64,000 nt of DNA from an uncultured Candidatus Saccharibacteria bacterium (GCA_964495685.1 CAZBVQ010000003.1:4824-68823), one strand, 5' to 3'. Positions 506-64,000 are shown, counted from the first letter of the stretch. Notes: generated by a model not told the origin, from the letters alone. Translations and numbers: made by a program.

Positions 506-649
506 TCGCCTTACAGGCGCGGTACAGGCTTCGTATCGTGCTCACTCTCGCAAGCTCGAGTTCCGCGCGATACACTCAGCCTTTTCGAATCCCTCCCGTG
601 ACGCGCGCAGGCGCGTCACTAGGACGCCCATGCTCACTTCGTTCGCATG

Positions 650-722
650 TGCGCCCTGAGGGATTCGAACCCCCGACCTTCGCTGTGTAAAAGCGCTGCT
701 CTACCAACTGAGCTAAGGGCGC
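650..722 (-). tRNA. tRNA-Val (anticodon UAC)
   Basis: Reverse complement GCGCCCTTAGCTCAGTTGGTAGAGCAGCGCTTTTACACAGCGAAGGTCGGGGGTTCGAATCCCTCAGGGCGCA folds as a cloverleaf. GG in D-loop, TTCGAAT T-loop, anticodon TAC at positions 34-36. CCA is not encoded. Confidence 0.85.
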
Positions 723-19589: not shown

Positions 19590-19697
19590 GGCGCACCGAA
19601 GCATGTGTCGCACTCAGGCGGAAAGGTTGATTCGTGGTATGCCGATATGAGTAGTCGATCGGTTTCCACCTGAGTGCGGCACATGCTTCGGTGCGCC
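19590..19697. repeat. 108-bp hairpin element: 32-bp inverted repeats (2 mismatches) around a 44-nt loop
   Basis: ggcgcaccgaagcatgtgtcgcactcaggcgg ... ccacctgagtgcggcacatgcttcggtgcgcc. Lies immediately after the queA stop. Confidence 0.7.
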
Positions 19698-21871: not shown

Positions 21872-22705
21872 ATGTCAGCTACTATTCTCTCTGGTCGTAT
21901 TGCCCGTGAAGCCCGTACGGCGACTCTGGTCGAACGGGTCAAGAAACTTGGGTACGCTCCCAAGCTCGCCATCATTCAAGTCGGTGATCGGCCTGATTCG
22001 ACGGCCTATATCAATGCCAAGAAATCATTCGCGGCAAAAATCGGTGTCGATATTATCCACAGACATGAGGCTGAACAGGTGACGCAAACGGCACTTATTT
22101 CGATCGTCCAAGAATGTAACAAGGACGCGTCAATCCAAGGGATCATCATGCAACTCCCATTACCGAGCCACATCGACACCGTTTCTATCATCGAAGCGAT
22201 CGATCCACACAAAGATGTAGACGGACTGACCACGACCAACTATCAGAAAATGATTCTCCATGAATCGGGGGCTATCATTCCTGCCACGGCGCGTGGCGTG
22301 TTCGAATTGTTCAGATATTACTCGATCAATGTGTCAGGTAAGAATGTGGTGGTCGTCGGACGTTCACGTCTGGTCGGTACACCAATCGCTGTATTGGCCA
22401 AACAGGCAGGTGCCCAGGTGGTCATCTGTCATAGCAAAACACCAGACATTGCAGCTGAGACCAAGAAAGCAGACATAGTCATAGTTGCTGCAGGCAAACC
22501 CAAACTGATCGGTGCTGACCATATTAAACAGGGTGCCATCGTGATCGATATTGGTATAACCAAAATGCCTGACGGTACTATCCAGGGAGACGTCGATCAT
22601 GCGACGGTCGACACCAAGGCCTCGCTCATCACTCCAACCATAGGCGGTGTCGGTCCCATGACCGTTCTTGGCCTTTTCGAGAATGTGCTCGACGCATGTA
22701 AGTAA
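21872..22705 (+). CDS. folD: bifunctional 5,10-methylene-THF dehydrogenase/cyclohydrolase
   Basis: ILSGRIAREA...AIIQVGDRPDSTAYINAKKS and overall architecture. Confidence 0.9.
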   Translation: MSATILSGRIAREARTATLVERVKKLGYAPKLAIIQVGDRPDSTAYINAKKSFAAKIGVDIIHRHEAEQVTQTALISIVQECNKDASIQGIIMQLPLPSHIDTVSIIEAIDPHKDVDGLTTTNYQKMILHESGAIIPATARGVFELFRYYSINVSGKNVVVVGRSRLVGTPIAVLAKQAGAQVVICHSKTPDIAAETKKADIVIVAAGKPKLIGADHIKQGAIVIDIGITKMPDGTIQGDVDHATVDTKASLITPTIGGVGPMTVLGLFENVLDACK

Positions 22706-34842: not shown

Positions 34843-37800
34843 ATGACTGACCCTATCAACCCAGAACAAAAAGCTATCACCAAATCTCCTCATGCTGAGC
34901 GCGAGGAGCGTATTCTTGCCCGCTGGAAAGAGAAGGGCATTTTCGAGCAGACACTCAAGCAGACTGAGGGCAAGAAAGAATTTATTTTCTATGAAGGTCC
35001 GCCAACTGCCAATGGTCGTCCTGGTATTCATCATCTCGAAGCACGCGCTTTCAAGGACGCGATTCCGCGTTACAAAACCATGCAAGGATTCCACGTGCGT
35101 CGCAAAGGAGGATGGGATACACATGGTCTGCCAGTCGAAATCCAAGTTGAGAAGGAGTTGGGCCTCAAGTCCAAGAAGGAAGTCGAGTCTTACGGCATCG
35201 AGCGTTTCAATGAGAAGTGCAAAGAAAGTGTCTGGAAATATGTCCATGAATGGGAAGGCTTCACTGAGCGCATGGGGTATTGGGTTGATCTCAAAGATCC
35301 GTACATTACCTACAAGTCTTCGTACATCGAGTCTTTGTGGAATATCATGAAGACAGTCGACAAGAAGGGATTGCTCTACAAGGATTACAAAGTCGTACCC
35401 TGGTGTCCGCGCTGTGGCACTGGTCTTTCGTCGCATGAATTGGCGCAGGGCTATCAGGACGTTAAGGATTTGGCGGTGACGGTGAAGTTCAAGGTCACAA
35501 ACGGAAAAGAAAAACTGGGCTCCACAGATGATATATATTTGCTTGCATGGACAACTACACCATGGACCTTACCAGGGAACGTTGGGTTAGCTGTTGGAAA
35601 AAAACAAAAAGGAATTACTTACAAACTGGTCTTTCTTGAACCGGACATTGCCAAAGTTGTTATCGGCAAAGGACAATCTGGTCAGTATGAATCCCCAAAC
35701 GGTTTTTTTGCAGAAGAAGTTGAAAAATTTAATAAAGAACATAAAGGAAAAGCATATCTCGTAACATCCCAATATAACTTTTCTGAAAAATTAAAGCCCC
35801 CATTTCCTATTAAAGAAAATCTTCTCCTAACAGATCTTACCGAGAATCAACTAATCGGCCTCACCTACGAACCCCTCTATTCGTTTTTGAAAGACAACAT
35901 TTCTGGTGCCGAAAAAGAAAAACTTTCCAATGCATACAAAGTATATGCGGCTGATTTTGTCACGACGACCGATGGTACTGGGATAGTTCACACTGCGGTT
36001 ATGTATGGTCAGGAGGATTTTGAGTTGGGAACACAGGTTGGTTTGCCGAAATATCACCTCGTCAATGATGATGGAACCTTCAAGAAAGAGGCCGGATTCC
36101 TTGCAGGCAGATTCGTGAAAGATGAAGCCGTCGCTATCGACATCATCAAAGATCTCGCCAGTCGCCCAACAGGCAGCTTGTTGTTCCACAAAGAGAAGCA
36201 CGAGCACAGCTACCCATTCTGTTGGCGTTGCAAGACTCCACTCATCTATTTTGCCCGCGATTCGTGGTATATCCGCATGTCTTCATTGCGTGACAACCTA
36301 GTCAAAGAGAATGAGAGCATCAACTGGGTGCCCGCCCATATCAAAGAAGGTCGTTTTGGTGAATGGCTCCGCGAAGTCAAAGATTGGGCCATTTCCCGCG
36401 AGCGTTACTGGGGAACACCACTTCCTGTCTGGGTTTGTGATGGGTGTCATGAGCGCAAAGTAGTTGGTTCTGTCGCCGAAATTGCACAGAAGTCGAAAAA
36501 CATGTATTTCGGTATTCGACACGGCGAAGCTGAGCAGAATGTACATAATATTCTGAACGGTGACCCAAGTAAGCACTATCATTTGACTGAGAAGGGCAAG
36601 AAAGAGGTTACGGATTCCGTTAAGTCATTCAAACAGAAGATTGATGTTATTTACGCCTCGCCATTGCTTCGTACCAAGGAGACTGCCGAAATTGCGGCAG
36701 GTATTTTGGGCGTGCCGGCATCTTCCATTTTCTATGATGAACGTTTGCGTGAAATGGGCATGGGCGAGCTCGAAGGGAAGAATGTGAGCGAGCTTAACGG
36801 ATTGGTTGATGTTCCAGAAAAACTCTTCACTACCTCGGTCAGAGGTGTTGAGACACGACTGGAGATCAAGAGACGCGTTGGCACATTCATCGAAGAGATT
36901 GAACAGAAGCATGTTGGTAAGACTATTTTGGTTGTCAGTCATGATAGTCCATTGTGGATGCTCGAGAGTGCTGCCACAGGCCTCGATACCACCCAGGCTC
37001 TTGCACTCAAAGCAGGTAAGTCATTTTTCATGGATAATGCCGAAGTTAGAAAAATTGATTACTCGATAGTTCCACACAACGCTGACTTCGAACTTGATCT
37101 GCATCGCCCATACATTGATACAGTGAAGATTCCGTGCGCATGTGGCGGGACAATGACACGTGTCAAAGAAGTTATGGATGTGTGGTTTGATTCTGGCGCT
37201 ATGCCTTTTGCGCAGGATCATTATCCGTTCGAACACAAAGAACTAGTAGATAGTGGTTTGTTCAAGAAAGCTCACGGCTATCCCGCTGATTTTATTTCTG
37301 AGGCCATCGATCAGACACGTGGCTGGTTCTATACATTGCACGCTATTGGTGTGTTGATGGGCAAGGGCAAGGCATTCAAGAACGTTATCTGTCTCGGTCA
37401 CATTCTCGATGGAGAGGGCAAGAAAATGTCGAAATCTCTCGGCAATATCGTCGACCCATGGAGCATGATGGACAAATACGGCGCTGACGCACTGCGTTTC
37501 TGGATGTACTCTGTCAATCAGCCGGGGGATTCGAAAAACTTTGATGAGAAGACAGTCGATGAAATGGTCAAAAAAGTATTCAATTTAGCGGCAAATGTGT
37601 TGTCGTTCTATCAGATGTATGCGGAGAAGTCGGCAGTTGCAAGTAACACGTTGCAAGTCACATCGCGTAACATTTTGGATCGATGGATTATTTCGAGACT
37701 TGATCAGGTGATCGAGACAGTCACCAAAGGCTTGGACTCATATGTATTTCTTGAGCCGACGCGTTCGGTACGTGATTTTATTGCAGACCTCTCACAATGG

Positions 37801-38493
37801 TATTTACGCCGCTCGCGTGACCGATTCAAGTCAGAAGATGTCCAAGACAAACAAGCTGCACTAGCGACGACCCGCTACATTCTAGTAACACTCGCCAAAG
37901 TTATGGCGCCGTTCACACCATTTTTTGCAGATTATCTGTACCAGGAAGCAGGTGGAGATCTCGAGAGTGTTCATTTGGAGAAGTGGCCGGTCGCAGGGAA
38001 GATCGATACGCAGCTCATCACAGATATGGCACACGTCCGCACCGCATGCTCCAAAGGTTTGGAGGCTCGTACACGTGCCAAGATCAACGTACGTCAGCCG
38101 CTGGCAAAGTTGTATATAAAGACCGGTATTGCCGACAAACTCTCACCCGAACTTCTCGGTCTGATCGAAGATGAAGTTAATGTCAAGGGAGTCGCTATCA
38201 GCGTGTCTATTGATTCCGAGGTGCAGCTCGATACCGTCATCACTCCCGCTCTCAAAGAAGAGGGCATGGTCCGTGAATTGATGCGCCTTATTCAGGATCT
38301 CCGCAAAGCCAAGGGTCTCAGTGTGGGTGATCGGGCAGTCTTGAATGTGGAGACAGATGGCGCGGGCAGGAAAGTTATCGACACCAATGCTACACAAATC
38401 AAAACCGCCTGCGGTATTTCTGAAATCCGCTACGGCACTGTTGCTGGTGACACGACCATGATCGCAGAGATGCCGTTCAAGCTTGGCTTGTAA
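34843..38493 (+). CDS. ileS: isoleucyl-tRNA synthetase (type 2) with an inserted histidine-phosphatase (PGAM-like) domain (~aa 545-745)
   Basis: PPTANGRPGIHH (HIGH), KMSKSLGN and DWAISRERYWGTPLPVWVCDGC; then the insert FGIRHGEAEQN...ILVVSHDSPLWM; then HRPYIDTVKIPCACGGTMTRVKEVMDVWFDSGAMPF. Confidence 0.95.
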   Translation: MTDPINPEQKAITKSPHAEREERILARWKEKGIFEQTLKQTEGKKEFIFYEGPPTANGRPGIHHLEARAFKDAIPRYKTMQGFHVRRKGGWDTHGLPVEIQVEKELGLKSKKEVESYGIERFNEKCKESVWKYVHEWEGFTERMGYWVDLKDPYITYKSSYIESLWNIMKTVDKKGLLYKDYKVVPWCPRCGTGLSSHELAQGYQDVKDLAVTVKFKVTNGKEKLGSTDDIYLLAWTTTPWTLPGNVGLAVGKKQKGITYKLVFLEPDIAKVVIGKGQSGQYESPNGFFAEEVEKFNKEHKGKAYLVTSQYNFSEKLKPPFPIKENLLLTDLTENQLIGLTYEPLYSFLKDNISGAEKEKLSNAYKVYAADFVTTTDGTGIVHTAVMYGQEDFELGTQVGLPKYHLVNDDGTFKKEAGFLAGRFVKDEAVAIDIIKDLASRPTGSLLFHKEKHEHSYPFCWRCKTPLIYFARDSWYIRMSSLRDNLVKENESINWVPAHIKEGRFGEWLREVKDWAISRERYWGTPLPVWVCDGCHERKVVGSVAEIAQKSKNMYFGIRHGEAEQNVHNILNGDPSKHYHLTEKGKKEVTDSVKSFKQKIDVIYASPLLRTKETAEIAAGILGVPASSIFYDERLREMGMGELEGKNVSELNGLVDVPEKLFTTSVRGVETRLEIKRRVGTFIEEIEQKHVGKTILVVSHDSPLWMLESAATGLDTTQALALKAGKSFFMDNAEVRKIDYSIVPHNADFELDLHRPYIDTVKIPCACGGTMTRVKEVMDVWFDSGAMPFAQDHYPFEHKELVDSGLFKKAHGYPADFISEAIDQTRGWFYTLHAIGVLMGKGKAFKNVICLGHILDGEGKKMSKSLGNIVDPWSMMDKYGADALRFWMYSVNQPGDSKNFDEKTVDEMVKKVFNLAANVLSFYQMYAEKSAVASNTLQVTSRNILDRWIISRLDQVIETVTKGLDSYVFLEPTRSVRDFIADLSQWYLRRSRDRFKSEDVQDKQAALATTRYILVTLAKVMAPFTPFFADYLYQEAGGDLESVHLEKWPVAGKIDTQLITDMAHVRTACSKGLEARTRAKINVRQPLAKLYIKTGIADKLSPELLGLIEDEVNVKGVAISVSIDSEVQLDTVITPALKEEGMVRELMRLIQDLRKAKGLSVGDRAVLNVETDGAGRKVIDTNATQIKTACGISEIRYGTVAGDTTMIAEMPFKLGL

Positions 38494-39136: not shown

Positions 39137-41074
39137 GTGCCCCCAGCTGATGAGCAAAATCGCATCGAAGAGCTCAAGAAGTCCCTCTATTCGCGGACGG
39201 CTCCTGATGTGCGCACGCGCCGCAAACTCCGATTCTCGCCGACAGAGACGCCCGTTCGTACCAATTGGGGAGATCATCCAGAAGGTATCGAGTCTGTCAC
39301 TCTCAACAAACAATACGAAGATCATTCCATGTCTTTCTTCACCAAATTTCTGATTGCTTCATTTGTATTTTGCGTCATCGCTGTAGGAATCGGTGCGTAT
39401 CTCTTTTTCAATGGATCCAACCTTATTTCGGCAAATAATATCGCTATAGATATTACTGGCCCTGTCTCTATTCCTGGCGGTGCCCCTGTCTCGTTCGACA
39501 TTCAAGTCACCAACAAGAACAACGTCGATCTCCAGTCTGCTGACTTAGCTATTGATTTCCCAGCAGGCGCGACCAATCCCAAGGATCCTACTCAAGAGCT
39601 CAAGACATACCGTGAATTGCTCGGTGATATTCCTGCGGGTGGTTCGGTCCACAAGACGGTGAGCGCGATCATTTTCGGTGAAGAGAATCTCCAGAAACAA
39701 ATCGGTGCCAACGTCACCTACAAGGTCAAAGGATCTACGACACTCTTCACCAAGAAGACGTCATATGAAGTACTCATCAATTCATCCCCGATAGTGCTCA
39801 ATGTCACGTCATTCCAAGAGATTACTTCAGGTCAAGAATTCGACATGAAAGTGTCGCTCAAATCAAATTCGACAGATATCCTCAAGAATGTCTTACTCAA
39901 AGGAAGCTATCCGTTCGGGTTTACCTTCATATCGTCGAGCATCAAGCCGCTCTCTGATAGTGCCACGTGGAAGATTGGTGATATACCACCTGGCGGGGAG
40001 CGCACGATCACCATTCACGGCAAGATACAAGGTGAAGATAGTGAGACACGCGTATTCCGCTTCGCTGCAGGTGCTCAGAGCTTGAATGACCCCAAAGTTA
40101 TTGGCACACAGTATATGACTGTCGATAAGGCCATGACCATCCAGAAGCCATTCATATCACTAGCGATCGCAATCGATAACAATTCGTCACCCAATGATTT
40201 CATCGGCCAATTCGACCAGAATGAGCGCGTCACTATCAACTGGTTCAACAATCTAACCACCTCAGTGTCCAATGTGAGCATTGTCGCCAAATTGAGTGGC
40301 TCTGCGTACGACAAGACTGCCGTGCAGCCTGATCAGGGATATTTCGATTCTGCCAACAACCAAATCATCTGGAACCAGAAGACGACGCCGGAGCTGGCAT
40401 CGGTCGCAGCAGGGCAGAGCGGTACTATTTCATTCGGCCTCATACCCAAAGACAAGAGCACGCCGACCAATCCGATAGTCAATCCGATAGTGGTGGTGAC
40501 GGCGGGAGTGTCTGCTGATCGCCAGAGTGGCTCGAATGTGTCGGGTGAATTGGCGGCCGCTGCTTCACGTACGACGCGCGTGTCATCCAATATTTCTCTG
40601 ACTGGTCGTATCGTCCGTACCACAGGACCTTTCGTAAATACGGGAGTGGTGCCACCCAAAGTCGAACAGTCTACTACCTATACCGTAGTGTGGACCATAG
40701 ACAATACATCAAGTGCTGTCGGCAATGCTCGTGTCACGGCCACGTTGCCCGCGTATGTGAAGTGGCAGAAGGCGGTGAGTCCGTCGAGTGAGAATGTCAC
40801 CTATGATGAGAATAGCGGGACGGTGACCTGGGAGATCGGCACAGTCGCCGCCTACACGTCGAGCGCGACTCGTCGTCGAGAGGTCAATTTCCAAATAGCA
40901 TTTACACCGAGTATTAATCAGACCGATCAATCTCCGACCCTAGTCAATCAATCGATACTTTCTGCAACTGATAATTTCACGGGGGCACAGCTCCAGAGCA
41001 CTCAGGAATATCTCACGACTCGCTTTAGTACCGATCCGGCCTATAGAGAAGGGCAGGCGACAGTGGTCAAGTAG
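39137..41074 (+). CDS. large TM-anchored surface protein (GTG start, leaderless after TATAAT at 39125-39130)
   Basis: 645-aa ORF. TM helix MSFFTKFLIASFVFCVIAVGIGAYLFF, then a beta-rich Thr/Ser/Asn-rich ectodomain. Confidence 0.6.
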   Translation: MPPADEQNRIEELKKSLYSRTAPDVRTRRKLRFSPTETPVRTNWGDHPEGIESVTLNKQYEDHSMSFFTKFLIASFVFCVIAVGIGAYLFFNGSNLISANNIAIDITGPVSIPGGAPVSFDIQVTNKNNVDLQSADLAIDFPAGATNPKDPTQELKTYRELLGDIPAGGSVHKTVSAIIFGEENLQKQIGANVTYKVKGSTTLFTKKTSYEVLINSSPIVLNVTSFQEITSGQEFDMKVSLKSNSTDILKNVLLKGSYPFGFTFISSSIKPLSDSATWKIGDIPPGGERTITIHGKIQGEDSETRVFRFAAGAQSLNDPKVIGTQYMTVDKAMTIQKPFISLAIAIDNNSSPNDFIGQFDQNERVTINWFNNLTTSVSNVSIVAKLSGSAYDKTAVQPDQGYFDSANNQIIWNQKTTPELASVAAGQSGTISFGLIPKDKSTPTNPIVNPIVVVTAGVSADRQSGSNVSGELAAAASRTTRVSSNISLTGRIVRTTGPFVNTGVVPPKVEQSTTYTVVWTIDNTSSAVGNARVTATLPAYVKWQKAVSPSSENVTYDENSGTVTWEIGTVAAYTSSATRRREVNFQIAFTPSINQTDQSPTLVNQSILSATDNFTGAQLQSTQEYLTTRFSTDPAYREGQATVVK

Positions 41075-41080
41075 TGCTGT

Positions 41081-41531
41081 TGACTTTTGTGTTCGAGGGT
41101 GTTACATTGTTCACGAACTTGAAATGAGTCATACGGAGATTTCGTGTCGGCTGGGTAGTTCGTACGGCCGCACGTGTGCGCGCATACGCGCACTGTTCAC
41201 GAGGCGCGGTTCACGCGACCAGAGTCGCGTACCCGACGGCGCTCACTGGCTTGGTGTTGGCGCCCTTCGGCTCGCCTCGTTCACGCCGGCTCGCCCCTTC
41301 GGTTTACCGATTCCGGGGGGCGAGTCCGGCCATGGCTCATATTTATTGACACTTTTGACTCGTGGTCAGCCGCCGACGCGCGTTTGGTCATCTGCTCCAG
41401 CGCGCCATCGACCAGAGTCACTTGGCACCCTCATGCCTCCCGCAACCTTTCCTCCGTTGCGACCGGGTGTGATGGGTGCCAAGATCGTTCTTTTGAACTG
41501 CTGCGGAGATGCCCTTCGCGGCATTTTTATT
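41081..41531 (+). ncRNA. candidate structured RNA: GC-rich (~60%) ~415-nt unit with its own promoter (TTGACT-N17-TACATT at 41081-41109) and terminator (~41505-41531)
   Basis: Multiple cUUCGg tetraloop hairpins, the palindrome GTGCGCGcataCGCGCAC, three GTTCACG repeats, and a 10-bp stem cttggcaccc/gggtgccaag. The only ORFs are Arg/Pro-rich nonsense. glyS has its own TGgTATACAAT -10 immediately downstream. Confidence 0.3.
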
Positions 41532-41559
41532 TTCCATACTTTTGGTATACAATGCCCCT

Positions 41560-42894
41560 ATGTCAAAAAAAGCCCCAGAATCAGTGTCCGACAAGGTCAT
41601 GGAAAACCTCATTGCTCTGTGCAAGCGTAGAGGCTTCATATTCCAGGGATCTGAGATATATGGAGGCCTGGCCGGTACCTGGGACTACGCTCCTCTCGGC
41701 CTGATGCTCAAGAACAACATCCGCAAGCTCTGGTGGAAGCGTTTCGTCGATGATCGTGATGATATGTACGGTGTCGATGCGGCCCTGCTCATGAATCAGC
41801 GCACTTGGGAGGCGAGTGGTCACGTCAGCGGCTTCGCTGATCCGATGGTGGAGTGTGCCAAGTGTAAACATCGTTTTCGTGTCGACCAGCTCGCTGATTC
41901 CAAGAAATGTCCCGACTGTGGCGGCAAGCTCGGAGAAGCGCAGCAGTTCAACATGATGTTCAAGACGCACGTCGGTGCCAACCAAGACTCAGCATCTATT
42001 TCATATTTGCGTCCCGAGACAGCACAAGGCATGTTCGTCAATTTCAAAAATATCCTCGACACCTTCCATCCCAAGCTACCGTTCGGTATGGCTCAGATAG
42101 GTAAGGCCTTCAGGAATGAGATTGCACCACGCGACTTCCTCTTCCGTGCTCGCGAGTTTGAGCAGATGGAGATTGAGTATTTCGTTAATCCGAAGGATTG
42201 GGAGAAGACATTCGAGCACTTCCACAAGGAAATGCACGCATTCATTGCTGATGTCGGTCTGACTGCTTCTAAAGTAAGTGACTATGAAGTGCCTGATGGT
42301 GATCGTGCTCATTATTCGAAGAGGACGATCGACGTCGAGTTCGAATATCCTTTCGGTAAGAAAGAGCTGTATGGTCTGGCATATCGTACAGATTTTGACC
42401 TCAAGCAACACTCAGAATTCAGTAAGGTTGATCTGTCATATTTCGATGAAGAAACAAAAGAACGCTTCGTCCCACATTGTATCGAGCCATCATTTGGTCT
42501 TGATCGCACGGTCCTTGCGGTACTGACAGATGCGTATAGGGAAGACGATCTCGGTGGTGAAAAGCGCACCTATCTTAAACTTGCTCCGTCAGTTGCGCCA
42601 GTGAAGATTGCCGTATTTCCATTGCTAAAAAATAAACCACAACTGGTTGCCAAGGCGCACGAATTGTTCAAGGTGCTCAAGAAAGAATTTGGTGCAGTAG
42701 TGTTTGATGATAATGGCAATATTGGTAAGCGTTATCGTCGTCAGGATGAGATTGGTACTCCGTTCTGTGTGACTGTTGATTTCGATACGATCGAGAAAGG
42801 TGCGGGGGTGACCATTCGTGATCGAGATACTGGTGAGCAAGAAAGGGTTGCGGAAGGGGAGTTGGCTGCATTCCTGCACAAGAAAATAGGTTAA
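41560..42894 (+). CDS. glyS: glycyl-tRNA synthetase (dimeric class II, GlyQS/eukaryote-archaeal type)
   Basis: GFIFQGSEIYGGLAGTWDYAPLG, zinc knuckle CAKCKHRF...CPDCGG, class II motifs. Leaderless start 7 nt after TACAAT. Confidence 0.9.
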   Translation: MSKKAPESVSDKVMENLIALCKRRGFIFQGSEIYGGLAGTWDYAPLGLMLKNNIRKLWWKRFVDDRDDMYGVDAALLMNQRTWEASGHVSGFADPMVECAKCKHRFRVDQLADSKKCPDCGGKLGEAQQFNMMFKTHVGANQDSASISYLRPETAQGMFVNFKNILDTFHPKLPFGMAQIGKAFRNEIAPRDFLFRAREFEQMEIEYFVNPKDWEKTFEHFHKEMHAFIADVGLTASKVSDYEVPDGDRAHYSKRTIDVEFEYPFGKKELYGLAYRTDFDLKQHSEFSKVDLSYFDEETKERFVPHCIEPSFGLDRTVLAVLTDAYREDDLGGEKRTYLKLAPSVAPVKIAVFPLLKNKPQLVAKAHELFKVLKKEFGAVVFDDNGNIGKRYRRQDEIGTPFCVTVDFDTIEKGAGVTIRDRDTGEQERVAEGELAAFLHKKIG

Positions 42895-44177: not shown

Positions 44178-44342
44178 GAGCCCTACAGAGCACTGTGCCG
44201 CGTGGATTCTGCGGAACTCGCCGCACGAACTTGTAAGGTCTTTTGGCATACGGGGCAATAATCTGACCATGCCAAAAGCCCTAACAAGTTCGGCGACTCA
44301 GACAGTCCTCGAATCCACGCGGCACAGTGCTCTGTAGGGCTC
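44178..44342. repeat. 165-bp hairpin/MITE-like element: perfect 32-bp terminal inverted repeats (gagccctacagagcactgtgccgcgtggattc) with nested inner imperfect inverted repeats
   Basis: Begins 1 nt after the peptidase stop and ends 1 nt before the next ORF. The inner cttttggcat/atgccaaaag and cgaacttgt/acaagttcg pairs extend the hairpin. Confidence 0.75.
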
Positions 44343-55411: not shown

Positions 55412-55510
55412 TCATCCTTGCACAACATAATTCCTTCCTTCCAAGCATCAAAGCGCTTCGCTGGCTACATTTTCGGCTTGTCAGGAAGGAATTATGTCGT
55501 GCAAGGATGA
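55412..55510. repeat. 99-bp hairpin element: 27-bp inverted repeats (1 mismatch) tcatccttgcacaacataattccttcc / ggaaggaattatgtcgtgcaaggatga
   Basis: Lies in the divergent intergenic region between ftsK and the regulator gene. Confidence 0.7.
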
Positions 55511-56438: not shown

Positions 56439-57024
56439 AGCTTGGATTTGTGTCAAAAAGTCCTTTTTGGGGATCGGTTGTATACTCTATATAGATATGT
56501 CATTTTACCTTGACTTTCCTAGGTATTTTGGCTACTATAGCTCTATTGACCAATAAACCTCGATTCAAGGCCATATTTCTGTAAGAATTAGGGCCTTTCA
56601 TCGTTGCAGTATATGGTCATGTAATATCTAGTTCCAAAGTGAGGTTTTGGGTTGTCCACATAGGATTTGCGAGTGAGGTAGACAGTACGCTATAATGCAA
56701 TGTAACGAGTGTGTAAAGTCTAACTTTATGCATTCGTTCCCAATGCGTTTCAGCACTGGGTCCCGAACTTTGACAACATAACAATAGTCAAATGTTCAAC
56801 CGATCATGCGGTTGGCGTATCTATCTTTTTTATTGAGCAATCAATAATTACAGATCGTGTGTCATCCCGTTTGATCTTTGCTTTGCCACAAAATATAGCG
56901 TCTGCGTGTCGATAGCGTGGGCGGTATATGTGGAAATGTATTATCAAGTTAGTTTACAAAATCGCATTAATCCTCTTCGTCTTATTAGTAATAAAAGAGG
57001 AGTGCGTTAAATTAGAAAATAGAC

Positions 57025-61444: not shown

Positions 61445-61459
61445 GTAAGAATTGAGTAC

Positions 61460-61487
61460 AAAAACCACCCCTCTCGGGGTGGTTTTT
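61460..61487 (+). terminator. rho-independent terminator
   Basis: aaaaaccacccctctcggggtggttttt. Confidence 0.7.
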
Positions 61488-61673
61488 GGTATGTGCGTAT
61501 AGTGCGCTATACTATGTGTGCATGATCAATCCATTCGACCGAAGTTTCTTCAAGTTCCTCATCGGATTCATGGTGATCCTCCTCCTTAGTTTCGGGGTCC
61601 TCTTCCTCGTAGGTCGCTACGGCTCATTCCTGTAATAGGTGGGGTGTCTGACTATACCAGACCACACGAAACA

Positions 61674-61714
61674 ATCTTCAGCGAATGTTCATCGATTCTT
61701 CATTATTTCTTCAT
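61674..61714 (+). repeat. 41-bp repeat copy 2 (see 48353-48393)
   Basis: atcttcagcgaatgttcatcgattcttcattatttcttcat. Confidence 0.6.
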
Positions 61715-61769
61715 CCTTCCTTGCTACGATCTGTGCATTATTGGGTTCGTAACCTCATACATGCACATG

Positions 61770-64000
61770 AAAGATTTCATTCATATACTTATGGCTGGTA
61801 TTACCACCGGCATGATCGCGTTCCTCGGATTCTTGCCGAGTGTACACGCGGAGACGATTATCAATGACGGGTTCCTGCAGGGAGATACGGTGTGGGATGT
61901 TGCTCATAGCCCCTACGTCTTGAATGATGTGGTGACTGTTCCCGCGGGCATTACGCTCACCATCGAGCCTGGTGTCCGAGTCGTGGCTGACCCAGCGTCG
62001 CCCTACGATCCTTACCTGTATGTGAATGGTACGCTTGATGTGGCTGGATCACCGAGTGCCCACGTCAGTATCGGCTCCTTGTTCGGTATCACGGTCGATC
62101 ATGGATATGCCACGCTGTCATACACTGATACCTCGATGAAAGGCACGCTATCATTCATCGGTGCCACGGGCTCTATCGCATCATCGACGATAGATCATGA
62201 TGCTGCGGATACCTCTGATGGCGTATACATTCAAGACAGTTCAGTCCGTATATCTGGCAGTCGCATCGCTCATCACGTGAACGGGGTGGTTGTTCAGGGT
62301 GGCGGAGGAGTATTCCAGGCCATCGGACAGACTCATCTCGCATGGAATAATGACGGCGGTGATGCCGATATAGTGAGTGGACTTATTGCACAGACTCCAG
62401 TCGTATCTATGTCAGTGCAGATTACTGATTCATCGTTGGTCGACAACGTACACACAGCTATTACCAATTATTCCTCGGCTACGGTCGATGCGGACCACAA
62501 TTGGTGGGGGAGTCAGTCGGGACCAAGTGATGCAGAGGCGGCGGCTTCTAATGGCGTTAAAGGATACATATCGTATACACCATGGCTTGATCATGATCCG
62601 ACGGTGCCACAGGTGGCGTCATTGTGTTGTTCGAGCATCTTATTCATTCCTGGACTCGAGGCCAGTCGACTCTATAGGTCCGAGGTCGGTATGTTCGGCA
62701 TAGGGAGTACCACCAATAGACTTTGGGAGCCCAATCGTAATGATGATGTTCGTAAACTCTTCCTCAATACCAATGGTTCGAGTACAGACGCGTCTATTTA
62801 CGTGGGTGGTCCGATCGGTCGTGCGCTCGGGGTCGTCAGTATTTACGGCTCGTTTATGGATATGCTTGATACATTAGTCACCCAAGGGACCATGAATGAG
62901 TGGCGACCGTTCGGTTACGATTGGCGTGCCGCGATCGGCGATGTGGTGACTGGACCGACGAGGCGGGCTACGACGACCGAGCAGCTCATAGACACGGTTA
63001 TCTCCATGGCCGATCATTCCAAGACAGGCAAAGTCACCATTGTGGCCCACAGCAATGGTGGTCTGGTCGCCAAATACCTCGTGAAGACACTTGTCGACAT
63101 GGGTAAGGTAGACATAATCGATTCGGTCATATCGGTGGCAGTGCCGTACCTGGGTACGCCGCAGGCAATTCTAGGGCTTCTTCATGGAGACAATCAGTCT
63201 ATCTTGGGAGGTCTTATTTTGAAACAGAGTGTCGCCAAAGAATGGGGGGTCAACATGCCCAGTGCGTATTCGCTACTGCCATCAGCTACGTATTTCGCAC
63301 GCGCGCTCGGGCCTACGATTGCGTACGCGAGTACCACGGGTGGTGAGGGTATCGATACATCGACAGAGCAGAATTCGTTCATATCTTCTCGCGCCAATGG
63401 TTGGCTCATGACGACGGCCGAAGCGCTCCATGCGATTCTTGACCCATTCGTATGGCCTTCGACTATTGTACGGTGGGCTATTGTCGGGTGGGGGAACCGT
63501 ACGGCCAAAGGGATCGTATATTCTGCCGACGGATACCGTGCTACGACGACTCCGATGGGTGATAGTACTGTGGTCGTGCCGAGTGCTGTGTATGATGCAG
63601 GCACAGTTGCGGCTATCAATTTGCCACAAGAATCAGTGACTGAAGGGAGGGTATATGATCATGCCAATATCCTCGAGTCATCCGCCACGCAATCTGCCAT
63701 TCGAGATATGGTGACAGGCGCTGATACTGACCAGTCGGTACGTACGTTGAGTATTACGGATAAATTGCGACAGATACCCAATCTGACCATTGGCGAACCT
63801 GATTATGAACATGAGAAGACATTCTTGGTGGTGAGCACGCATTCACCCGTCGAACTCCATCTTAGTGACATGAATGGCCGTCACACTGGATTCGCACCTA
63901 TTCCTGCAAGTACCGACGAGGAACTTGAGGATGGATTGTGGAAATATGCTGAGCACGATATTCCTGGAAGTAGTTTCGAGACACACGGCGATGAAGAACA
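61770..64000 (+). CDS. secreted protein, 3'-truncated by the window end: signal peptide + right-handed beta-helix-like region + alpha/beta-hydrolase lipase/esterase domain
   Basis: An open frame runs from the ATG at 61770 to the window end, over 740 aa, and is not in the ORF track because it lacks a stop. MKDFIHILMAGITTGMIAFLGFLPSVHA signal peptide. GxSxG nucleophile motif in TIVAHSNGGLVAKYL. Confidence 0.7.

Follow-up and report, generated by a model that had tools for sequence, protein, structure and literature searches.

The subject of this report is a gap of 485 nt (41075–41559) between two plus-strand genes in the 64,000-nt stretch CAZBVQ010000003.1:4824-68823, which is called the window below. 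We put the probability at about one half that this region is an independently transcribed, lineage-restricted gene of about 415 nt for a structured non-coding RNA (ncRNA), which would probably act in trans or bind a protein. The gap follows directly on the gene at 39137–41074 (+; stop codon 41072–41074), a surface-protein gene of the DUF11 type whose 645-aa product carries a membrane segment at its N-terminus together with a DUF11 repeat. It precedes glyS, which codes for a dimeric-type glycyl-tRNA synthetase (GlyRS) and has its real start at ATG 41560. The initial annotation had left open whether the region was a candidate ncRNA or an unusually long leader of glyS. The former has gained comparative support, while the latter is disfavored by the promoter that glyS appears to have of its own and by the lack of any T-box or riboswitch signature.

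The element is distinguished by its composition and folding. GC content reaches 0.65 at 41143–41442, the highest of all 300-nt windows in 64 kb (mean 0.473, standard deviation 0.052), in agreement with the earlier remark that the region is markedly richer in GC than its surroundings; the gap also has the top GC content among the 18 intergenic regions of at least 120 nt. The minimum free energy (MFE) is −201.6 kcal/mol. Measured against dinucleotide shuffles, this corresponds to z −6.9 on the plus strand and −4.3 on the minus strand, and with the terminator removed to −6.8 and −5.7, respectively. The plus strand is favored because of the promoter, the U-run and the G-U pairs. Both the window element and its shortest homologue, in the related locus L176, are predicted to fold into multi-branched structures.

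Some of the motifs listed in the initial annotation were found again, others had to be corrected. The palindrome GTGCGCG-CATA-CGCGCAC is present at 41176–41193, within a 5′ variable part that can be aligned with the related locus L090 from about 41165 on. The long-range stem of 10 bp is also there (41421–41430 with 41474–41483) and closes a 63-nt hairpin, D3; the 69-nt stretch 41418–41486 around it has a z of −7.2, and in L090 the base of this stem is identical and the interior diverged. GTTCACG, counted three times before, occurs four times on the plus strand within 177 nt (41109, 41195, 41209 and 41279), the whole 64 kb having 12 copies on both strands; the last base of the fourth copy (41279–41285) is the first base of hairpin H4. 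The sequence CGACCAGAGTC is present twice in the element. Three cUUCGg tetraloop hairpins did not survive folding: in the folds UUCG is part of a stem or of a larger loop, and the first of the candidates does not exceed its shuffles in stability (z −0.9).

Predicted signals of transcription bracket the element. The promoter TTGACT-N17-TACATT had been read correctly in sequence and placed one base too far to the right (its coordinates are given in Table 1); the transcription start is predicted at about 41115–41116. The arrangement TTGACT-N17-TA..TT directly after the upstream stop codon is shared by the window, L084 (TTGACT/TATCTT) and L176 (TTGACT/TAGATT), with unrelated spacer sequences, and promoter-like sites lie at the equivalent place in L090, L298, L174 and L092. 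Scores of at least 9.5 were obtained in five of the seven long spacers, at a background probability of 0.012 per 75-nt window. No promoter-like site is present in L089, the one short spacer long enough for scoring. On the 3′ side the terminator scan confirmed the hairpin that had been proposed: a GC-rich 10-bp stem (41499–41523) followed by TTTTTATTTT. The terminator is located 36 nt before the glyS ATG, on the same strand. In L090, L084, L177, L176 and L298 the element likewise ends in a long hairpin with a U-run just before the glyS promoter.

The gene glyS itself would be transcribed from its own promoter into a leaderless or nearly leaderless mRNA, as was suspected at the outset. The −10 box lies 6 nt before the ATG in the window, and GGTATA(G/C)AAT (that is, TAGAAT or TACAAT) precedes the ATG of glyS by 6–7 nt whether the spacer of a relative is short or long. 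Because the box is kept in relatives without the element, it argues against reading the element as a leader. The counts over the window suggest that leaderless mRNAs may be widespread in this genome of the candidate phyla radiation (CPR): a Shine-Dalgarno-like motif was found at only 2 of 68 approximate gene starts, and a −10-like box (TAnnnT) ends 5–8 nt before the start codon at 15 of the 68 (e.g., 21872, 34843, 39137, 41560 and 45507).

A protein-coding gene was considered for the region and rejected. Open reading frames (ORFs) of 168 and 176 aa have GC that is flat over the three codon positions (0.60–0.65 in all frames), Pfam gave no match for any ORF in the gap, and the 168-aa ORF, although called as a gene by gene callers, had itself as the only match among 5.8 billion proteins. 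Comparison of the homologous spacers by tblastx revealed nothing protein-like. The predicted transcript begins with neither ATG nor GTG, although the genome elsewhere appears to rely on leaderless starts. The ORFs had been called nonsense from the beginning, and the lack of periodicity, of Pfam matches and of protein homologues agrees with that description.

Searches for known RNA families were negative as well. By eye, no consensus of RNase P, tmRNA, SRP, 6S or T-box had been recognized, and an Rfam scan had been proposed as a check. Rfam 15 at gathering score detected only four tRNAs in the whole window, all elsewhere; at E ≤ 10 it gave three meaningless matches in 40900–41700, with no T-box, riboswitch (glycine riboswitch included), 6S or RNase P among them, and six related loci yielded nothing. 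ARAGORN found the four tRNAs elsewhere in the window and no tRNA or tmRNA in the element. The T-box core GGGTGGNACCNCG, whose conserved sequence (..GGGUGGNACCNCG) makes up the antiterminator bulge beside the terminator in T-box leaders, has with at most two mismatches 10 matches in the window, a chance number, and none inside 41075–41559. The RNase P CR-I motif GAGGAAAGUCCGGGC, part of the long-range P4 helix, is absent from the region within three mismatches. With blastn the region had only chance-level matches of at most 19 nt in the window, blastn and nhmmer against 80 GTDB-representative glyS loci returned nothing, and neither did distant blastn searches of phage and plasmid collections. 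We found no description in the literature of such an RNA in Patescibacteria.

If the region is a gene, then we can ask: Is it recognizable along the different lineages that carry a long spacer? The related loci were retrieved via GlyRS homologues. Their long spacers are almost unalignable at first sight, and in a MAFFT E-INS-i alignment of five of them only H4 and the terminator were reliably aligned. Judged by pairwise comparison, recognizable homologues are present in the same slot in three or four lineages (L090, L176 and L084/L177). Between the window and L090 an alignment of about 320 nt has 61% identity (blastn E 9e-12) and, after removal of both promoters, a local-alignment z of 9.2; on the same measure the window and L176 reach 6.1, and L084 and L176 reach 6.6. 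Similarity is borderline for L298 (z 3.0) and L174 (z 2.5), and nothing was seen in L092.

The flanking genes provide a neutral scale for this divergence. The window and its relatives are only 35–46% identical at the four-fold degenerate positions of glyS and the 645-aa gene, which is near saturation. Simulated neutral substitution of 39% of the window body erased its stability excess (z about +0.85). The fold z of the body is −4.7 in L090, −4.3 in L176, −4.7 in L298 and −3.6 in L174; in L084 (−0.5) and L092 (−0.6) the body is no more stable than shuffles. Body GC is 0.53–0.61 in six of the seven and 0.48 in L092, the compared loci lying at 0.41–0.53. Since flanking synonymous sites are near saturation while the element is still alignable and has kept its GC and stability, these sequence comparisons indicate purifying selection on the element rather than decay.

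What seems to be conserved in structure is a two-hairpin core of about 100 nt, H3b-linker-H4 (41238–41335). The H3b stem differs in sequence between the window, L090, L176 and L084, yet it can be paired in each of them, with the register set by hand. H4 (GCCGG-CUCGCC..GGCGAG-U-CCGGC; fold z −4.3) forms 13 of 13 pairs in the window, L090 and L176; four pairs are changed on both sides and none is broken, which was equaled by 7 of 500 column shuffles. One of the pairs is G-U in L090 and so pairs on the plus strand only. Of the covariation that had been suggested as a check on the region as a whole, compensatory changes were seen in H4, in only three sequences. Model R1, made for H4, recognized only the window, L176 and L090 (E about 1e-16), its weak match in L084 being the terminator hairpin of that locus. 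Model R2, a covariance model built from the sequence and structure of the window core alone, recovered L176 with 33 bits (E 5e-5) and L090 with 30 bits (E 2e-4), in both cases with the two hairpins in register. R1 found no further copy in the window, nor did it find one in the related loci, about 950 kb in all; R2 found no second copy in the window.

Around the core the element is more variable. The window and L090 have hairpins at matching positions, with 18 of 60 pairs broken in the MAFFT alignment; at the alignment columns equivalent to D2 there is a hairpin in L090 whose sequence is largely different. L176 passes from the core almost straight to the terminator. A U-rich tract is located 3′ of H4.

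It is instructive to follow the junction across the relatives. Many members of this part of Patescibacteria have the 645-aa gene followed by glyS, usually with a spacer of 0–80 nt that holds at most a terminator hairpin and the glyS −10 box. Long spacers are restricted to the close clade of the window: 485 nt in the window, 461 nt in L084 (92% GlyRS identity), 494 nt in L090 (89%), about 290 nt in L176 (86%), about 385 nt in L298 (83%), 419 nt in L174 (86%) and about 260 nt in L092 (80%). The spacer is 141 nt in L089 (90%), 74 nt in L175 (84%) and about 50 nt in L173 (84%), and in these three sister lineages the element is missing at this position. In a neighbor-joining tree of GlyRS the window groups with L084/L177 and L090, followed by a sister clade with mostly short spacers and then by L176 and L298. 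Because most relatives have a junction of 0–80 nt, the unit looks like an addition confined to a small clade of Patescibacteria.

Other units occupy the same slot. In L174 (2720–3138), L298 (3096–3480) and L092 (1055–1336) a promoter, a spacer and a terminator are arranged as in the window; the spacers of L174 and L298 are strongly structured, and the body of L092 folds no better than shuffles. These units may be homologues that have diverged too far to be recognized, or they may have been acquired independently. In the more distant loci L010 (2500–2970) and L011 (2490–2970) a different insert was detected, probably a gene for a small hydrophobic (membrane) protein with its own terminator, and this insert makes the junction seem a recurrent landing place for small accessory units.

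Table 1. Predicted features of the region between the 645-aa protein gene and glyS (window coordinates).
Feature	Position	Strand	Details and basis
Sigma-70-type promoter	41080..41108	+	−35 TTGACT 41080–41085, 17-nt spacer, −10 TACATT 41103–41108; promoter scan
5′ variable part, several GC-rich hairpins including GCGAC-CAGA-GUCGC	41115..41237	+	MFE fold, repeat counts (GTTCACG at 41109, 41195 and 41209)
Core hairpin H3b, 6-bp outer stem GGCGCU/GGCGCC, loop region with conserved UGGKUU	41238..41264	+	Local folds of four homologues
Pyrimidine-rich linker (..CCUCGUUCAC) between H3b and H4	41265..41284	+	CCCCUCGU conserved in L090 and L176; fourth GTTCACG
Core hairpin H4, GCCGG-CUCGCCCC ... GGGGCGAG-U-CCGGC	41285..41330	+	13 conserved bp, bulged U on 3′ side
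Hairpin D2 (GACUCGUGGUC ... GACCAGAGUC)	41357..41419	+	MFE
Hairpin D3, base CUUGGCACCC/GGGUGCCAAG, apical loop CUUUCCUCC	41421..41483	+	Fold
Intrinsic terminator	41499..41533	+	10-bp stem UGCUGCGGAG/CUUCGCGGCA, then UUUUUAUUUU; terminator scan
glyS promoter −10 region TGGTATACAAT and ATG 41560	41543..41562	+	Outside the RNA; sets its 3′ limit

According to the reading we favor, transcription would begin near 41115, just after the upstream stop codon, and would end at the intrinsic terminator, before the separate promoter of leaderless glyS. The product would act as RNA and not as a glyS leader, most probably as a trans-acting regulatory or protein-binding RNA in which the H3b-linker-H4 core may serve as the recognition site. 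As the comparison shows, the GC-rich hairpins around the core vary with the lineage, being gained, lost and remodeled. A shorter isoform ending after H4, at the U-rich tract, is conceivable, and H4 and D3, as long near-perfect helices, are plausible substrates of RNase III. The gene probably arose in one small clade of Patescibacteria (Paceibacteria-like) and was inserted into a tight, widely conserved junction.

Several points weigh against the stand-alone RNA gene. Its promoter and both transcript ends are predictions. Structural conservation is seen for the core of about 100 nt out of 415 nt, and the helix that closes the 5′ domain is not clearly conserved. The covariation comes from few sequences, there being four or five divergent homologues, and the E-values of the covariance models are rough. 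One of these homologues, L084, has a body that folds like its shuffles. No target, partner protein or seed was identified: complementarity of the RNA to the 5′ end of glyS is equal to that of shuffles, and an antisense search of the window gave as its best match 13 nt in folD, no more than chance would produce. There, CGACCAGAGUC, which occurs in the element at 41216 and 41409, is complementary to codons 15–21 of the folD mRNA (21915–21933, +; folD 21872–22705); the match comprises 13 contiguous nt (21920–21932), or 17 of 18 with a one-base bulge, and about one such match is expected by chance in 64 kb. Finally, long GC-rich hairpins are also present in other intergenic regions of this genome, and the hairpin content of the element could be in part a general property of its spacers.

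The last point leads to the alternative that survives best, which we nevertheless regard as doubtful. The region may be a hairpin-rich spacer, that is, an expanded 3′ untranslated tail and terminator-insulator of the 645-aa gene without separate RNA function, whose GC-rich palindromes stop transcription, protect the 3′ end of the mRNA and shield the leaderless glyS promoter. In the short-spacer relatives L089, L175 and L006 just a terminator hairpin and the glyS promoter are found here, the 3′ 120 nt of L174 are homologous to the terminator region of L089, and the best H4-like match in L084 is its terminator hairpin. Such a spacer would also accommodate the other long GC-rich inverted repeats between genes of the window and the remodeling of much of the element outside the core. 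However, all seven long spacers carry a promoter-like site directly after the stop codon, of which a 3′ tail has no need; conservation of the core exceeds the neutral level, and the core does not belong to a dispersed repeat; and one 10-bp terminator would be enough, which leaves 380 nt of extra structure unexplained.

The second part of the initial proposal, a cis-acting leader or attenuator of glyS, we consider improbable. It would require read-through from the 41080 promoter only when the terminator is overridden, by means of an RNA that senses tRNA, glycine or GlyRS, analogous to the T-box or to thrS autoregulation. The position suits it, since the gene that follows directly on the same strand codes for an aminoacyl-tRNA synthetase and the terminator lies 36 nt before its ATG, and the glyQS gene of Firmicutes, a classic T-box target, offers a precedent; the H3b loop even contains a UGGN motif. 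But no T-box, glycine riboswitch or other riboswitch was matched in Rfam, the T-box core was absent from the region within the mismatches allowed, and no antiterminator alternative is evident by eye. Moreover, the conserved −10 box of glyS stands 6 nt from the ATG also in relatives without the element, and it is without the element that most relatives have glyS. In an organism that hardly uses the Shine-Dalgarno sequence and has many apparently leaderless starts, a read-through transcript would bury the start codon.

A similarly low probability is assigned to decaying foreign or mobile DNA, or a pseudogene remnant, lying without function at a permissive junction and retaining the GC of its origin. 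The GC of 0.60–0.65 against 0.47 for the genome, the independent gain of a small membrane-protein gene at this junction in L010 and L011 and the absence of the element from the sister lineages L089, L175 and L173 could all be understood in this way. Against it, no similarity to phage or plasmid records and no protein-level similarity in any frame was detected, we noticed no terminal repeats, direct or inverted, at its flanks, and the unit does not occur a second time. Neutral decay would also erase the GC, the promoter, the core hairpins and the excess stability, which persist despite saturated synonymous sites.

A more ambitious version of the RNA gene is distinctly improbable, namely that it represents a new class of mid-sized structured RNA (about 230–420 nt) of Paceibacteria-type CPR bacteria, built on the two-hairpin core and functionally tied to glyS. 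One possible form of it would be an RNA that senses the status of tRNA-Gly or GlyRS, in trans or in cis. If true, this would amount to T-box-independent regulation of an aminoacyl-tRNA synthetase in an organism without Shine-Dalgarno-based control and with leaderless mRNAs.

A divergent housekeeping RNA (RNase P, 6S, signal recognition particle RNA or tmRNA) missed by the Rfam models in this phylum is extremely improbable: size, GC-richness and a promoter and terminator of its own would fit, and GAGUCCGG in H4 superficially resembles the CR-I motif of RNase P by eye, but this sequence pairs locally within H4 and not at long range, the Rfam, CR-I and ARAGORN searches were negative, the fold is multi-branched rather than a 6S rod, the element is absent at this position from most relatives, sister lineages included, and its divergence, with patchy similarity despite 85–92% identical GlyRS, is far faster than that of a universal RNA.

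A sigma-54-like reading of TTGGCACC-N-TGC in D3, made by eye, was dropped for its wrong spacing in the window. Scans of viral contigs with the H4 pattern and the D3-base pattern gave chance matches in unrelated phage DNA that is high in GC or rich in palindromes; the D3-base matches include TTGGCAC-N-GTGCCAA palindrome arrays in L302 (12107–12186) and L303 (3229–3297), viral contigs of about 220 kb, which are unrelated to the element.

As to the host, the relatives of its GlyRS assign it to Patescibacteria (CPR), among metagenome-assembled genomes of the Paceibacteria/Parcubacteria type. The GlyRS of the best species representative is only 78% identical to that of the window, and among the matches listed in a metagenome scan with GlyRS all relatives have at most 80% identity. 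Three independent public assemblies agree on the element at 100% identity, and an assembly artefact is thereby excluded. DNA assemblies with this genome derive from SRR6747782, DRR783857 and SRR12487013, and close relatives occur in JGI 3300045331–3300045377 and in the Hainich groundwater sets. The gene order around it is IleRS, RecO, the 645-aa protein, the gap, GlyRS, an M16 peptidase, an AI-2E-family transporter and a MetRS-like class I synthetase. The IleRS (34843–38493, +; 1216 aa) contains a His_Phos_1 domain (PF00300) inserted at residues 558–740, within the catalytic domain; the same architecture with a histidine-phosphatase insertion is annotated in relatives.

Other intergenic regions of the window also attracted our attention. 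At 425–650, beside tRNA-Val (649–722, minus strand), lies a second GC-rich (0.58) structured stretch with z about −7 on both strands, a perfect hairpin with 15-nt arms at 449–483 and no Rfam match; a 12-nt copy at 584–595 is complementary to part of the T-arm region of tRNA-Val (658–669). Long inverted repeats at 19590–19697, 55412–55510 and 44226–44292 have arms of 35, 35 and 24 nt, respectively, that are 91–94% complementary. At least two of them are located in short spacers between called genes, and the three may be unusually long terminator hairpins. The intergenic regions 56439–57024, 61445–62376 and 62704–63193 (586, 932 and 490 nt) contain no long ORF, and Rfam matched none of them. The first is AT-rich, and in a coarse sliding scan with 12 shuffles only, one of its 150-nt windows had a very negative fold z.

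Patescibacteria have tiny genomes and are mostly uncultured, and to our knowledge almost nothing is known of RNA-based regulation in them. A credible structured RNA, independently transcribed, under selection and outside Rfam, would be one of few ncRNA candidates for the CPR radiation, and a concrete, testable one, with a defined promoter, core motif and terminator. Its narrow distribution limits the immediate impact.

Among known systems, RNase P RNA (RF00010/RF00011) is universal and slow-evolving, whereas most relatives do not have the element at this locus. It shares with 6S RNA (RF00013 and related) the gene architecture of an abundant-type sRNA, with a sigma-70 promoter and a structured GC-rich RNA, and poor conservation of primary sequence, but 6S RNA is a single rod of about 180–200 nt with a central bubble, and the element has 415 nt, is multi-branched and is not universal among relatives. 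With the glyQS T-box leader (RF00230) it has in common the same-strand location directly before the gene for a glycyl-tRNA synthetase, a structured RNA and an intrinsic terminator. In contrast to that leader, it has no T-box sequence, no recognizable Stem I or specifier and no Rfam match, it is about twice as long, and a conserved glyS promoter stands between its terminator and the ATG. The run of GC-rich hairpins between insulated transcription units, variable in content among relatives, resembles repetitive extragenic palindromes and bacterial interspersed mosaic elements (REP/BIME). REP, like MITE-like elements, are repeats dispersed in many copies, however, whereas the core of the element, accompanied by a conserved promoter, is single-copy according to the R1 search.

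The best comparison is provided by the orphan candidates for structured small RNAs (sRNAs) that were obtained from long GC-rich intergenic regions by the GC-IGR approach (Stav et al. 2019 PMC6429828; Brewer et al. 2021 PMC8632094; Narunsky et al. 2024 PMC11109978). Like them, the element occupies a long intergenic region that is an outlier in GC, is non-coding and strongly structured, has few representatives and no assigned function, and possesses its own promoter (here predicted) and an intrinsic terminator. It differs from the GC-IGR motifs held in Rfam 15, none of which it matches, in its uncultured patescibacterial host and in that about 100 of 415 nt are demonstrably conserved. By this comparison the unit is to be classed as a lineage-restricted structured sRNA gene, outside every Rfam family tested, rather than as a new kind of system.

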